Below are positions 57,403-62,250 of a stretch of 62,914 nt of DNA, in pieces. Origin of the DNA: a virus (lineage: Duplodnaviria; Heunggongvirae; Uroviricota; Caudoviricetes). The notes below the pieces were generated by a model. The model had not been told where the DNA came from and searched no databases. It saw nothing but the letters and a program-made list of their open reading frames with translations. Both the position numbers and the translations under genes were made by a program. How positions within the stretch are numbered: the stretch's first letter is position 1; each line of letters opens with the position of its first letter. The stretch spans positions 113,952 through 176,865 of IMG/VR virus record IMGVR_UViG_3300021403_000003. One strand, 5' to 3'.

Positions 57403-58020
57403 GTGAGTAAGGAAGTGAAAATTCTCATCACTGATCCAAATGGCAGCCCACGTGAATGGGTTGACTTTTATGTTGCTTGTTGCTATCATGCAAGAGGCAA
57501 GGTGTTGTGGACAGTGGGTGATCCAGTTAAGACATTTTTGGGTGGCAAAAATGCATATGGTATTCAGTCCAGGGTTGATATTGCCCCAGTAACAGGTGTG
57601 ACTGGTCCATTGGTTGGTCAGAAATGGTTGTCCAAGACCTCAAAGTACGCTGAACGTGATATTTTGTATGCACGTGACAGGTTTCTTTGTGCTTATTGTG
57701 GTACAAAGTATCCTGAACCAAAGTTGACAATTGATCATGTGAAGCCGAAGTCTCGTTACAAGGAATTTGGGCTTCCAAAGAGTGAGTTGAATGTTTGGAC
57801 CAATACCGTGACTGCATGCAGATCATGTAATCATTTGAAGGCGGATAAAACTCCTGAAGAAGCTGGAATGCCATTGTTGTATTTGCCATACAAGCCAACT
57901 TTGGCTGAGAAGTACATTCTTAGCCAAAGGCATATCCTTGCTGATCAAATGGAATTTTTGGAAGCAAGAATTCCGAAGAGTTCAAGGCTTTATGTTGATG
58001 GTAAGATAAAGTTGGATTAA
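57403..58020 (+). CDS. HNH endonuclease (McrA-like)
   Basis: LYARDRFLCAYCG, LTIDHVKPKS, WTNTVTACRSCNHLK.DKTPEEAGM. Confidence 0.9.
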   Translation: MSKEVKILITDPNGSPREWVDFYVACCYHARGKVLWTVGDPVKTFLGGKNAYGIQSRVDIAPVTGVTGPLVGQKWLSKTSKYAERDILYARDRFLCAYCGTKYPEPKLTIDHVKPKSRYKEFGLPKSELNVWTNTVTACRSCNHLKADKTPEEAGMPLLYLPYKPTLAEKYILSQRHILADQMEFLEARIPKSSRLYVDGKIKLD

Positions 58021-58255: not shown

Positions 58256-58331
58256 GCTCAACGTGGTTGTAATGGTAACACAACTCTCTCGTAAGGAGTG
58301 GTTCCCGGTTCGATTCCGGGCTTGAGCACCA
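58256..58331 (+). tRNA. tRNA-Thr(CGT)
   Basis: ACTCT-CTCGTAA-GGAGT; TTCGATT; ACCA. Confidence 0.88.
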
Positions 58332-58343
58332 TAGAGGTATATC

Positions 58344-58628
58344 ATGAGTGTGAATGGCATACAGAATTATATGACAGCTGATGATCAAGAGAAGCATTAT
58401 GAACGTTATTTGCAAGCTCAATATCAGCAGGTAGTGGAATTCATTTCTTCCGAACAGAACTATGAGGTATTGAGAAATAAACTCAATGATCTCGACAGAG
58501 TGTTGACAAATTTCTTGGGTGAACTGGTCATATCCAGGCCACAACACAGGAGAGCTGACAGCATTCAGAAGCTGGTTGCCGAACTCAAACGAGATTTGAC
58601 ACCAGACTTGGTGAACATAAAGATTTGA
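58344..58628 (+). CDS. hypothetical protein
   Basis: GAGG RBS; helical/coiled ORF. Confidence 0.6.
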   Translation: MSVNGIQNYMTADDQEKHYERYLQAQYQQVVEFISSEQNYEVLRNKLNDLDRVLTNFLGELVISRPQHRRADSIQKLVAELKRDLTPDLVNIKI

Positions 58629-58862
58629 TCTTGTCGACCTATCGCTGGCGGGCTCGTTTTCCGCTAGAGGAAGTTCGCGACATGCTTCAAGGTCACTGGG
58701 AGACGAAAGTCGTTTGTACCAGTCAGATTATGGCATGCAACTCTAACAGACCGAGGTAAACCTTGTGCCTATGAGGTCGGGTTGAGGCAGTCACACTTGT
58801 GACCAGGTGAAAACCTGAGGCAAATGATAGGATAGAACAGAATCGCGGCTATGGACAAGATC
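58627..58862 (+). ncRNA. rnpB: minimal RNase P RNA
   Basis: P1 GATCTTGTC/GACAAGATC; P2 CCTATCG/TGATAGG; P3 CTGGCGGG/TCCGCTAG; CR-I GAGGAAGTTCGCGA pairing with CR-V AGAACAGAATCGCGGCTA (P4 with bulged U). Confidence 0.85.
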
Positions 58863-58911
58863 GATTTTGGTTGGTGGGCAGACCTTGAATCAATATATTA
58901 TGGGAGGTATC

Positions 58912-59508
58912 ATGGCTAAGCAGAGAAAAAGACGTTTGAAACCTTATGAGGCAATACCATTCACCAACGAACTCAAACAAGTGATCAACCCTGGTGATAG
59001 TATAATTGCAGTTACGCATTGTACTCAACATATTGACGTTAATCTCGGTCGTTACATCGGTTTGCGTCGTCATACTAATCGTTGGAGTAACAAAGATGAA
59101 TATTTGACTGTTGTTGTGGAGTATGATTTGGTCGATGAATATGATGCTCACAATGTAACAGGTGAACGTTGGAATTGGAGGTATGAACCACCTGGTTTGG
59201 TTCGGGTGAGATATCCATATCATCCTGGATATCCTCCTGCGCCACGTTCAACGATTTTTACTTCTCAGGAAGAGAGAAATCGTCTCATGGCAGAATACAG
59301 TGCTAAAAAGGCTGAGATTGATGCCAAATATCAGGCTGCAAAAGATGATTATACAGCCAAGCAAAAAGCTTGGGATGCTGCAGTTGAGGAATACAAAAAA
59401 GCCAATTATACGACTGTTAGAAAGCCTTATGTTAAGGCTAAGACATTGCAAAGAAATAGGATTTATCCTATCAATATGCAATTGAAGGATTTAGCAAAAA
59501 CCACGTGA
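58912..59508 (+). CDS. hypothetical protein
   Basis: GGGAGG RBS before ATG 58912; Ala/Lys coiled C-terminus. Confidence 0.7.
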   Translation: MAKQRKRRLKPYEAIPFTNELKQVINPGDSIIAVTHCTQHIDVNLGRYIGLRRHTNRWSNKDEYLTVVVEYDLVDEYDAHNVTGERWNWRYEPPGLVRVRYPYHPGYPPAPRSTIFTSQEERNRLMAEYSAKKAEIDAKYQAAKDDYTAKQKAWDAAVEEYKKANYTTVRKPYVKAKTLQRNRIYPINMQLKDLAKTT

Positions 59509-59714: not shown

Positions 59715-60764
59715 ATGTGGAAAGATGTAGGCATCGAAGAGCCACGCTCAGAACTCGCAGTAATCATTGGTAGATTTCAACCAGGTCCTCATTATGGTCA
59801 TATGGGATTGTTTGAGGCTGCTGCTAATATTGCACCAAACATTCTCACGTTGATCGGATCATCATTCATCGCACGTAATATCAAGAACCCATTCACTTTT
59901 GATGAACGTGAAGAAATGATTTTGGCTGGAACAAAACATCTCAACAGAAATATCAATTGTGAAGGCATAGGAGACCGTTATAGCAATCAGAATTGGGTTG
60001 CGCAAGTCCAAGTAGCTGTTCAGGATGAAATTGATATGCTTGGGATATCAAGCCCACGGGTAGTTATTGTTGGTCACAAGAAGGATGCAAGCTCATATTA
60101 TTTGGATATGTTTCCTGGATATAGGCTGCATGAAATTGAGAGTCGTGGTGATATATCCAGTACACACTTGAGAAAAAGTTTGTTTGGTTCTCGTGAAATT
60201 GTTGGGATTGATGGTCCAGTCAAAGAATATTTGGAAAAATGGACAAACAAAAATCCTGAAATCTTTGAAAATCTTTGTGGTGAATATAGATTTTTGGAAA
60301 ATTACAAGAAGCAATTTCTTGGATTGAAATATCCACCAATCTTTGTAACAACTGATGCAGTTGTTATTTGTAACGGACATATATTGTTAGTCCGTCGTCG
60401 TTCTCATCCTGGGAAAGGACTTTGGGCTCTTCCTGGAGGATTTCTCAAGGAAAATGAAACAATTCAAGAATCATTGTTCAGAGAACTTGATGAAGAAACC
60501 CACCTAGATTTTCCAAACAGCTTGTTGAAGGCTTCATTGAAAGGAACGCATGTTTTTGATGCACCAGGACGCTCTTTGAGAGGAAGAACAATCACTCATG
60601 CTGGATTGATCCTATTGGAAAATTGCAGATACCTTCCAAAGATTAGAGCAGATGATGATGCAGAAGCAGCAAAATGGTTTCCATTGTCTGACTTTTATCA
60701 AATGTCTCATGTGATGTTCGAGGATCATCACATGATTGGAATGTTTATGGTGAATAGAACCTAA
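59715..60764 (+). CDS. nadM: bifunctional NMN adenylyltransferase / Nudix hydrolase (NadM-Nudix, NatV-like)
   Basis: IGRFQP..HYGH, IGSS..RNIKNPFTFDER, ISST; Nudix box GGFLKENE..ES..RELDEET. Confidence 0.92.
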   Translation: MWKDVGIEEPRSELAVIIGRFQPGPHYGHMGLFEAAANIAPNILTLIGSSFIARNIKNPFTFDEREEMILAGTKHLNRNINCEGIGDRYSNQNWVAQVQVAVQDEIDMLGISSPRVVIVGHKKDASSYYLDMFPGYRLHEIESRGDISSTHLRKSLFGSREIVGIDGPVKEYLEKWTNKNPEIFENLCGEYRFLENYKKQFLGLKYPPIFVTTDAVVICNGHILLVRRRSHPGKGLWALPGGFLKENETIQESLFRELDEETHLDFPNSLLKASLKGTHVFDAPGRSLRGRTITHAGLILLENCRYLPKIRADDDAEAAKWFPLSDFYQMSHVMFEDHHMIGMFMVNRT

Positions 60765-60789
60765 GCGATAGACGCAAAAGGAGAATAAA

Positions 60790-62250
60790 ATGTTAGAAGA
60801 ACTTGAAGTAACAGATGATATTATCACAAGTCCCATTTTCAATGCTGATGGGTACAAACCAAGTCATTATTTTCAATTTCCAAAGGGAATAAAACAACTT
60901 GAGGCTTACATAGAATCACGTGGTGGGAAATATCCAGTCACACCATTTGTTGGTCTTCAGATTGAATTGAAGAAGCATTTTCTGAAACCAATCACTAGAG
61001 AACAAATTGATGCTGCAGAAGCTGTGTTTGCAATCTATGGCGCACCATTCTTCAAGGAAGGCTGGGAATACATCCTTAAGGAATACGATGGTTATCTTCC
61101 AATTGAGATCTGGGCACCAGATGAAGGTCACGTTATTCCCACCAATAATGTTTTGTTGAAAGTCAAGACATTTGATCCGAAATGTTCCTGGCTGGTTTTC
61201 TGGGTTGTTTCTTACATTGAAACAACCCTGTTGCGAGGAACTTGGTTTCCAAATACCGTGGGATCAATTGATCATCACATCAAAAAGATGTTCATCAAGT
61301 TTTTGAAGGAAACTTCAGACACCATGGATGTTTTGCCTTCGATGTTACATGATTTTGGTGCTCGTGGTGCATCAAGTCTTGAGACTGCAGGTATTGCTGG
61401 TTGTATACACTCATTTTTCTTCATGGGAAGTGATACAATCACTGGTGGCTTGTATGCAATGAGATACTATAACATTAGGAAGATCAAAGATTTTCCAATT
61501 CGCACAGTGCCCGCAGCTGAACATAGTTCTATCACGGCTTGGAGAAGGAATCGTGAAACTGATGCATACAGGAATATGCTCAGGAAATTTGGTGGTAAAT
61601 ATCCATTCATTGCAGTAGTCAGTGATAGTTATGATATTTTTCATGCTGTTCGTGATATTTGGGGAACAGAACTCAAGGATGAAGTGATTCAGTGCGGTTC
61701 TATGTTGGTGGTTCGTCCAGATTCTGGCAACCCAGTAGAAGTTGTCATGAAAGTGTTGATGATTCTTGATTCGAAATATGGTCACACTGTCAACAGTAAA
61801 GGATATCGTGTTCTGAAGAACGTTCGTGTGATTCAGGGAGATGGTGTCAATCCAGAATCAATCTTTGATATTCTTACAACGATGAAGGGTTATAACTTCA
61901 GTGCTGAGAATGTTCTTTATGGTATGGGTGGCAAACTTCATCAAGGTCATGATCGAGATACTCAGAAATATGCAATGAAGACTTGTGCTGCTGAGGATGA
62001 AGATGGATGGTATGAAGTCTATAAGGATCCCGTGACTGATCAAGTCAAGAAATCCAAGCGCGGTCGGTTGATGTTATATTACGGTGATGAAGTTGGTTTC
62101 TTTACTGGTTTGGAAGAGGATGAAATCAAATTGTTTGAAGATTCAGGTGCAAAACCGATGCTGAAGTGTAAATTTAGACTTGGCAAACTATTGATTGATC
62201 ATAATTACAAGGAAGTACAGGCAAGGCTTGATTCTTACTTGAATTTGTAA
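60790..62250 (+). CDS. nadV: nicotinamide phosphoribosyltransferase
   Basis: ADGYKPSHY, LHDFGARG, VPAAEHS, VVSDSYD, VVRPDSG, IQGDG, RDTQKYAMK. Confidence 0.93.
   Translation: MLEELEVTDDIITSPIFNADGYKPSHYFQFPKGIKQLEAYIESRGGKYPVTPFVGLQIELKKHFLKPITREQIDAAEAVFAIYGAPFFKEGWEYILKEYDGYLPIEIWAPDEGHVIPTNNVLLKVKTFDPKCSWLVFWVVSYIETTLLRGTWFPNTVGSIDHHIKKMFIKFLKETSDTMDVLPSMLHDFGARGASSLETAGIAGCIHSFFFMGSDTITGGLYAMRYYNIRKIKDFPIRTVPAAEHSSITAWRRNRETDAYRNMLRKFGGKYPFIAVVSDSYDIFHAVRDIWGTELKDEVIQCGSMLVVRPDSGNPVEVVMKVLMILDSKYGHTVNSKGYRVLKNVRVIQGDGVNPESIFDILTTMKGYNFSAENVLYGMGGKLHQGHDRDTQKYAMKTCAAEDEDGWYEVYKDPVTDQVKKSKRGRLMLYYGDEVGFFTGLEEDEIKLFEDSGAKPMLKCKFRLGKLLIDHNYKEVQARLDSYLNL

Follow-up and report, generated by a model that had tools for sequence, protein, structure and literature searches.

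A miniature RNase P-like RNA gene, reduced to a catalytic domain, in a tRNA-rich phage genome

The window analysed here, a stretch of 62,914 nucleotides (nt), makes up the final 62.9 kb of a 176,865-bp IMG/VR virus record that is complete (IMGVR_UViG_3300021403_000003, positions 113,952 to 176,865) and is assigned to the Caudoviricetes; the sole sequencing run with this DNA was a soil metagenome. At 58627-58862 on the plus strand it carries a gene of 236 nt, spanning the 5' strand to the 3' strand of helix P1, that resembles the RNA of ribonuclease P (RNase P), the ribozyme that trims new tRNAs. The first two bases of the gene are shared with the stop codon of an open reading frame (ORF) of 94 amino acids (aa), and a 198-aa ORF starts at 58912, 49 nt downstream. 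The nearest tRNA gene, tRNA-Thr(CGU) at 58256-58331, called by ARAGORN and Rfam, lies on the same strand 295 nt upstream. Judged from its sequence, the gene encodes a much reduced RNase P RNA that descends from the bacterial type A and has a complete catalytic domain. Loci used for comparison are referred to by L numbers.

Anatomy of the RNA

The helix plan was read against Escherichia coli M1 RNA (L244:1217-1593, minus strand) and comprised the full helix set of the bacterial type-A catalytic domain, that is, P1 to P6, P15 to P17, a hairpin at the P18 position and the conserved regions (CR) CR-I, CR-IV and CR-V; all features lie on the plus strand. P1 was formed by 58627-58635 (GAUCUUGUC) with 58854-58862 in nine perfect base pairs (bp), and P2 by CCUAUC (58638-58643) with GAUAGG (58826-58831) in 6 bp. 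The P3 hairpin (58645-58667; 7 bp, 9-nt loop) was obtained with RNAalifold on a structure-blind alignment. CR-I (58667-58680, GAGGAAGUUCGCGA) consists of J3/4 (GAGGAA) and the 5' strand of P4, with a bulged U at 58674 or 58675; it was invariant in the family, and gap-free alignments set it against E. coli G61-G74 and against the Rfam consensus for RNase P, GAGGAAAgUCC. CR-V, which was also invariant in the family, consists of J2/4 (AUAGAACAGAA, 58832-58842) and the 3' strand of P4 (UCGCGGCU, 58843-58850) and aligned to E. coli ACAGAACCCGGCU; the second conserved block of the family, AACAGAAUCGCGGCUA, lies at 58837-58851. The strings and pairings that an earlier note on this DNA had listed, a perfect 9-bp P1, P2, P3 and both strands of P4, were all found in place. 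The note had also put AAAUGAUAGG ahead of the 3' strand of P2; this needed correction, since the last six bases of AAAUGAUAGG are that strand.

P5 pairs 58681-58684 (CAUG) with 58734-58737 and is followed by J5/15 (CAA, 58738-58740), the equivalent of E. coli C247-A248-A249, which aligned to E. coli GCAAGG; the GCAA of this junction was unchanged in 22 of 22 members. P15 (58741-58743 with 58784-58786) encloses P16/P17 (58749-58778), in which P16 is formed by 58749-58752 with 58775-58778 and the terminal loop is L17. The 3' strand of L15, GGGUU at 58779-58783, carries a GGU that was invariant in the family and aligned to E. coli G292-G293-U294; in bacterial type-A RNase P the L15 GGU binds the 3'-CCA of the tRNA. 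The P6 pseudoknot pairs CAAGGU (58688-58693) in J5/7 with 58760-58765 in L17. Both hallmarks of the type-A architecture, P15-P16-P17 with an L15 GGU and a P6 pseudoknot between J5/7 and L17, were present. The type-A P18 hairpin with a GNRA loop, located between P15 and CR-IV, was also present in the window, with an extra hairpin before it: the region 58790-58817 reads GUCAC-acuu-GUGAC and then the P18-like CAGGU-GAAA-ACCUG (58804-58817). An insert at the P18 site was present in eight of 28 members and absent from the other 20. CR-IV, or J18/2, lies at 58818-58827 (AGGCAAAUGA; family consensus UAGAUAAAUGA) and aligned to E. coli UAGAUGAAUGA.

Features of the specificity domain (P7 to P14, CR-II and CR-III) were not found; between P6 and the 3' strand of P5 there was just a 29-nt stub at 58695-58723. 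It comprises a P7-like ACUGG/CCAGU stem and a GAC-GAAA-GUC hairpin, both described in the earlier note, with an internal loop (GA opposite GUUUGUA) between them. The stem, the asymmetric loop and the hairpin recurred in most members, with a conserved GGAG ... GUUnGUACC and a hairpin that was often GNRA-ended.

P4 has the geometry of the E. coli helix, 3 bp, a bulged U and 5 bp, and aligned to it without gaps in pairwise MAFFT. A66-U360, the bulged U69, C70-G357 and G73-C354 were retained. The remaining five of the eight pairs were changed and still paired: A67-U359 to G-C, G68-C358 to U-G, C71-G356 to G-C, G72-C355 to C-G, and G74-C353 to A-U. This gap-free alignment of P4 was a second small correction to the earlier note. 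Since P4 was invariant across the core family, it was uninformative on covariation there. The divergent member L260 pairs GUUCAGGA with CCUGGCU where the family pairs GUUCGCGA with UCGCGGCU, which amounts to double-sided changes at two neighbouring pairs; the bulged U is still there. The P4 of this member (L260:2735-2975; GUUCAGG/CCUGGCU) was nearer to the cellular consensus, and an extra hairpin was seen in its J2/4; L260 is of use as an evolutionary intermediate and for the study of covariation in P4.

Homology, selection on structure and family distribution

A covariance model of the family (R1) was made from 20 members, with the window copy excluded. R1 matched the window at 58628-58869 (133.2 bits, E = 6.7e-49), and this was the sole match in the window and in the phage genome; the 176,865 bp contained no second RNase P RNA, and the bacterial type-A model RF00010 returned nothing but noise, outside the RNA site, when it was run on the complete genome of the phage. 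On a 3-kb E. coli locus the best R1 match was weak (7.4 bits, E = 0.0035) and lay inside rnpB on the right strand. Its register placed J5/15, P15, the GGGU of L15, CR-IV, the 3' strand of P2, and J2/4 with the 3' strand of P4 opposite their E. coli counterparts, and the same correspondence was obtained in pairwise MAFFT.

Rfam RNase P models matched several of the shorter members, at 40-49 bits (E from about 1e-8 to 1e-13). RF00010 matched L243 at 41.9 bits (E = 8e-12) and L242 at 40 bits (E = 3e-11), over model positions 1-367. When eight loci were scanned with all of Rfam, RF00373, the top of the RNase P clan, matched L239, L237, L243 and L221 at 41-49 bits (E = 5e-11 to 2e-8). In the alignment of L239 to RF00373, which spanned P1 to P1 and skipped the specificity domain by a local end, GAGGAAGUUCGCGAC was set under GAGGAAAgUCCcCCC and ACAGAAUCGCGGCUAC under ACAGAAGGgGGcUUAc. 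All family matches were below the Rfam gathering scores, which are 100 bits for RF00010 and 84 bits for RF00373; on random genomes RF00373 reaches at most about 14 bits (PMC3579882). The matches thus lie short of formal Rfam membership; homology to RNase P RNA is nearly certain. The earlier note had proposed a phage RNase P RNA consisting of the catalytic domain alone, and this proposal was supported by the catalytic-domain anatomy with its covariation, by the Rfam matches on relatives and by the reciprocal match to rnpB. It had also treated the absence of a covariance-model hit as grounds for rejection; the window copy itself gave no Rfam match, and the matches to family members overturned that refutation at the level of the family.

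Selection on the structure was assessed in two ways. In the structure-blind test, RNAalifold on a MAFFT alignment of 22 members recovered P2, P3, P5, P15 and P16, with double-sided compensatory changes at 20 of the 23 predicted pairs. Pairs were also counted by script on a 31-member model alignment, the controls being shuffled columns and slid partners. Canonical pairing was 79% in P1 compared with 44% after shuffling, with double-sided changes at all eight tested pairs; 96% compared with 58% in P2, with compensatory changes at six of six pairs; and 100% compared with 61% in P5, with double-sided changes at three of four pairs. The corresponding values were 87% and 65% for P3, 99% and 63% for P15, and 94% and 62% for P16. 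For each of these six helices none of 300 shuffles equalled the observed pairing. P1 lies outside the structure of the model, so its signal is independent of the fitting; the counts for P2, P3, P5, P15 and P16 lean on the model alignment, yet they agree with the structure-blind result. The helices that surround P4 in an RNase P catalytic domain, P1, P2, P3 and P5, were thus all present, with covariation in all four. The P6 pseudoknot was examined sequence by sequence in 28 members, where the summed best-helix score was 405, compared with 309 ± 12.5 for shuffled loops; none of 500 shuffles attained this score. The paired words varied among members (CAAGGU/ACCUUG, CUGCU/AGCAG, GCGGAAAU/GUUUCCGC, GAGACU/AGUCUC). 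Selection on the structure of the phage RNA family is nearly certain.

To collect relatives, IMG/VR was scanned for exact words and the matches were then filtered locally. Matches to single 14- or 15-mers were mostly due to chance, and two-block patterns were therefore used. At least 27 distinct sequences carried both conserved blocks. The two-block pattern was found on 35 viral contigs (23 + 8 + 4) of 16-494 kb, with a block spacing of 118-210 nt and none shorter; further members had a longer spacing (L056, L101) or were one-mismatch variants (L042, L023, L110, L169), and four more were reached on metagenome contigs through the neighbouring protein. In total the family comprised at least 45 loci, with members of 200-390 nt. 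One copy was located in a cultured phage, Stenotrophomonas phage vB_SmaS-DLP_6 (KU682439.2), at 105776-106024 (R1 134 bits, E = 6e-49). It fills an unannotated gap and ends 1-2 nt before tRNA-Arg(CCG); RNase P is not mentioned in the paper on this phage. A weak R1 match (12 bits, E = 0.003) was also seen in Synechococcus phage BUCT-ZZ01 at 99344-99447 (L253:1501-1604), where Rfam gave no support; the similarity may be accidental, or the sequence may be a highly diverged relative.

Among 185,579 species genomes of bacteria and archaea, just two contained the two-block pattern. Both matches were on small contigs of metagenome-assembled genomes (MAGs), L242 (Roizmanbacteria, 3 kb, at least 13 tRNA genes) and L243 (Actinomycetes, 2.3 kb). 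Since these contigs are tiny and hold tRNA genes, they are probably phage fragments that were mis-binned; a search of the two MAGs with RF00010 found no canonical RNase P RNA. The family is essentially confined to phages. Rfam 15 has no family for this RNA, and no phage or viral RNase P RNA was described in the full-text literature searched, a body of text that most subscription journals lie outside. A blastn search of the region against GenBank phages, in near and distant modes, gave no match because the conserved blocks are too short.

The flanks fetched for 27 member loci carried tRNA genes at 23, with up to 36 per locus and every such tRNA on the strand of the RNA; at 14 of the 27 a tRNA lay within 150 nt of it. 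ARAGORN called 32 tRNA genes in the window, 31 of them within 44.7-52.5 kb and the other being tRNA-Thr(CGU). CCA was encoded by 30 of the 32, and many were spaced just 5-8 nt apart. The encoded CCA and the tight spacing fit an enzyme in which the GGU for CCA binding is retained and which would have to cut close-packed precursors. Non-canonical T-loops were present in eight of the 32, including the tRNAs at 46789-46863, 47106-47180, 47458-47535, 50156-50230, 51129-51203, 52153-52227 and 52431-52504; examples are GGUCCGAUUCC and GGUGCAAAUCC, which replace GGUUCGAAUCC. The suggestion of the earlier note that an enzyme without a specificity domain may suit such loops is a reasonable conjecture; it would concern only eight of the 32 tRNAs. 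Two of the ARAGORN calls were unusually long tRNAs (96 nt at 44688 and 94 nt at 46536).

Comparison with known RNase P RNAs

Like E. coli M1 RNA, the product of rnpB (RF00010), the phage RNA keeps the whole catalytic domain, which could be aligned position for position. It differs from M1 RNA in the loss of P8 to P14, CR-II and CR-III, in the re-coding of five of eight P4 pairs and in the absence of P18 from most members. The family range of 200-390 nt, with 236 nt in the window, compares with about 377 nt for M1 RNA, a specificity domain of roughly 150 nt having been replaced by the stub. Unlike bacterial rnpB genes, the phage RNA is encoded inside tRNA arrays and scores far under the Rfam gathering score.

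Naturally occurring RNase P RNAs that are poor in specificity domain are the archaeal type T RNAs (PMC3579882). Like them, the phage RNA has a near-complete catalytic domain, has mostly lost the specificity domain and retains a short P7/P9-like stub that is often GNRA-ended; in type T the L9 tetraloop of the stub contacts P1 (PMC3579882). Archaeal type T RNAs have a 3-bp P2, a 2-nt linker between P5 and P15 and canonical P4 positions (PMC3579882), whereas the phage RNA has a 6-bp P2, a 3-nt linker (CAA), a bacterial-style L15 and P6 and an altered P4, and so lacks the features that define type T. The type T model, RF02357, gave no match in Rfam scans of the window region and of eight family loci. 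On these features the phage RNA looks like the product of a reduction independent of type T.

A parallel in construction is the E. coli catalytic-domain construct Eco CP RPR, which is catalytic whether or not the C5 protein is present (PMC5839562). It requires a P6-like interaction, and P18 is dispensable once the specificity domain is gone (PMC5839562); the conserved P6 of the phage family and the lack of P18 in 20 of 28 members match these requirements. Eco CP RPR is a laboratory construct with a wild-type P4, whereas the phage RNA is natural and has a conserved stub and a variant P4.

Proposed activity, rival explanations and neighbouring genes

In the mechanism favoured here, the RNA would be transcribed with, or close to, the phage tRNA genes and would bind host RnpA through its conserved core regions. 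In the bacterial holoenzyme structure these core regions form the RnpA binding site. The RNA would then cut the 5' leaders and short spacers of polycistronic phage pre-tRNAs, recognising its substrates mainly by the acceptor stem and the genome-encoded CCA and not by the elbow of T-loop and D-loop, and the phage would thereby supply its own catalytic subunit for the maturation of 32 tRNAs during infection. A search of the phage genome with PF00825 (RnpA) found no RnpA gene, so the protein partner would be host RnpA or a phage protein not yet recognised. The probability that the gene encodes an RNase P RNA that is active, acts in trans and works with host RnpA was put at about 0.68.

Several observations weigh against this reading. 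The Rfam RNase P models missed the window copy, both when the entire window was scanned at gathering scores and when 58330-59000 and 58620-58870 were scanned at E ≤ 10, probably because of its extra hairpins at the P18 site, longer P3 and 10-nt J7/5; permissive Rfam settings on the DLP_6 copy likewise gave no RNase P match, and the matches on other relatives fell far short of the gathering scores. Thermodynamic folding alone was unremarkable (minimum free energy z = -1.9), and a promoter and terminator scan around the RNA gave nothing exceeding shuffles. The window RNA sits between two protein-coding genes with no tRNA directly adjoining. Nine of ten cultured tRNA-rich phages searched with R1 had no clear copy (BUCT-ZZ01, Milchi, RSP15, MD18, LucasX, XacN1, Moby, B23 and X1). 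The J2/4 of L258 (2486-2762) is altered from ACAGAA to ACUAAA, and its sister contig L257 retains just a 54-nt remnant (2709-2762); the RNA thus seems dispensable in some lineages and may be decaying in that of L257 and L258. Finally, P4 departs at five of its eight pairs from the P4 of E. coli, which agrees with the Rfam consensus for RNase P, and the re-coded pairs, all still paired, include the equivalents of A67 and G68, the phosphates of which are taken here to be the catalytic metal-ion site. Metal ligands are backbone atoms, so the re-coded P4 may be compatible with the chemistry.

The re-coded P4, which is the catalytic heart of the RNA, together with the lost specificity domain and the gene decay in L257 and L258, is what would be expected of a catalytically dead mimic that kept its protein- and tRNA-binding surfaces, lost its chemistry and soaked up host RnpA or pre-tRNAs like a sponge, so that tRNA maturation would be tilted in favour of the phage. 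Such a mimic is unlikely. Conservation was strictest at GAGGAA, ACAGAA and GGU, at the bulged U and at the equivalent of A248, which are presumed to belong to the active site or to contact the substrate; P4 has retained its geometry of 3 bp, bulge and 5 bp exactly, and it covaries. The P6 pseudoknot, needed for activity by a bare catalytic domain (PMC5839562), was also maintained, and a sponge would have no need of all these features. Chance resemblance, or a functionless, decaying fragment of a captured host rnpB, might be argued from the missing Rfam match and the modest folding z-score of the window copy, and is hardly tenable: the family has at least 45 loci in very different phages, with invariant cores and compensatory changes in seven helices, and its model scored the window copy at E = 7e-49. 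This candidate was contradicted by the covariation and conservation data.

Two further explanations retain an active ribozyme and concern how it would work. In several members (L049, L194, L214 and DLP_6) a tRNA begins 0-5 nt after P1, as would suit a cis-acting module of the tRNA-array transcript that cuts the following tRNA, and hence its own 3' end, and is not a general trans enzyme. This is very unlikely to be the whole function, given that the RNA is flanked by protein-coding genes in the window and in L255, that the nearest tRNA in the window is the one 295 nt upstream, and that some 30 tRNAs share a single copy of the RNA in each genome; action in cis would not preclude action in trans. 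The other explanation is that an active ribozyme works with a phage protein, for which the adjacent 198-aa family is the candidate, instead of or besides host RnpA. In the window, L108/L180, DLP_6, L255, L258, L259 and L260, the gene for the 198-aa protein or a homolog lies no more than 500 nt from the RNA, and the protein has a basic N-terminus and a confidently predicted fold without a match. This explanation is unlikely, in that the flanks of most family members, which lie in tRNA arrays of larger phages, are devoid of such a gene, L257 keeps the protein and has lost the RNA, and the co-occurrence may be gene order inherited among related T4-like phages of 165-177 kb. It is distinctly improbable that in this T4-like subgroup the ribozyme and the 198-aa protein form a phage-specific holoenzyme that does not borrow host RnpA. 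The reading preferred here remains a trans-acting RNase P RNA that would work with host RnpA.

RNase P RNA is considered a cellular ribozyme of universal occurrence, and its P4 core is described as universally conserved (PMC3579882). If the phage RNA is active, the catalytic subunit of RNase P can be virus-encoded, and a bacterial-type catalytic domain works naturally without a specificity domain, a situation hitherto represented by laboratory constructs and archaeal type T alone. Activity would also mean that the sequence of P4 can be rewritten at constant geometry, a natural experiment on the requirements of the active site. Processing of tRNA would be added to the translation-related functions carried by large phages, and Stenotrophomonas phage DLP_6 on S. 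maltophilia offers a cultured system for direct tests. Should the holoenzyme with the 198-aa protein prove true, it would represent a new type of RNase P protein cofactor and host-independent maturation of pre-tRNA 5' ends.

The gene for the 198-aa protein (58912-59508, plus strand) has no assigned function; its homologs adjoin the RNA in several other phages, and the link between the two is uncertain. The homolog lies downstream of the RNA in L108/L180 and upstream of it in DLP_6 (AAY80_165); other copies are at L255:3001-3585, L258:3001-3570, L259:1504-2052 and L260:3001-3543. Identity among the homologs was just 31-60%, with 74 representative clusters. The usual gene order was HNH endonuclease, RNA, 198-aa gene, NadM/Nudix and NAMPT. 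Because the gene is absent near most members and L257 has it without an intact RNA, inherited synteny is at least as likely as a functional link to account for the association. The predicted fold (pLDDT 94.7) is a small SH3/Tudor-like beta-barrel interrupted by a 47-residue helix. Pfam and PHROG gave no function, Foldseek against the PDB found nothing at E ≤ 0.001, and a wide structural search returned just small barrels of the Tudor, BAH, PWWP and KOW kind at Z ≤ 6.8, within the background range; the predicted fold looks novel.

The HNH endonuclease gene lies at 57403-58020 on the plus strand, about 600 nt upstream of the RNA. HNH homologs with 45-55% identity were found a few kb from the RNA in L221, L204/L241, L237/L238 and L108/L180, and the enzyme may be a homing endonuclease that travels with the tRNA region. 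Directly downstream, at 59715-62250 on the plus strand, NadM/Nudix (349 aa) and NAMPT (486 aa) form an NAD salvage pair, a feature of many large phages.

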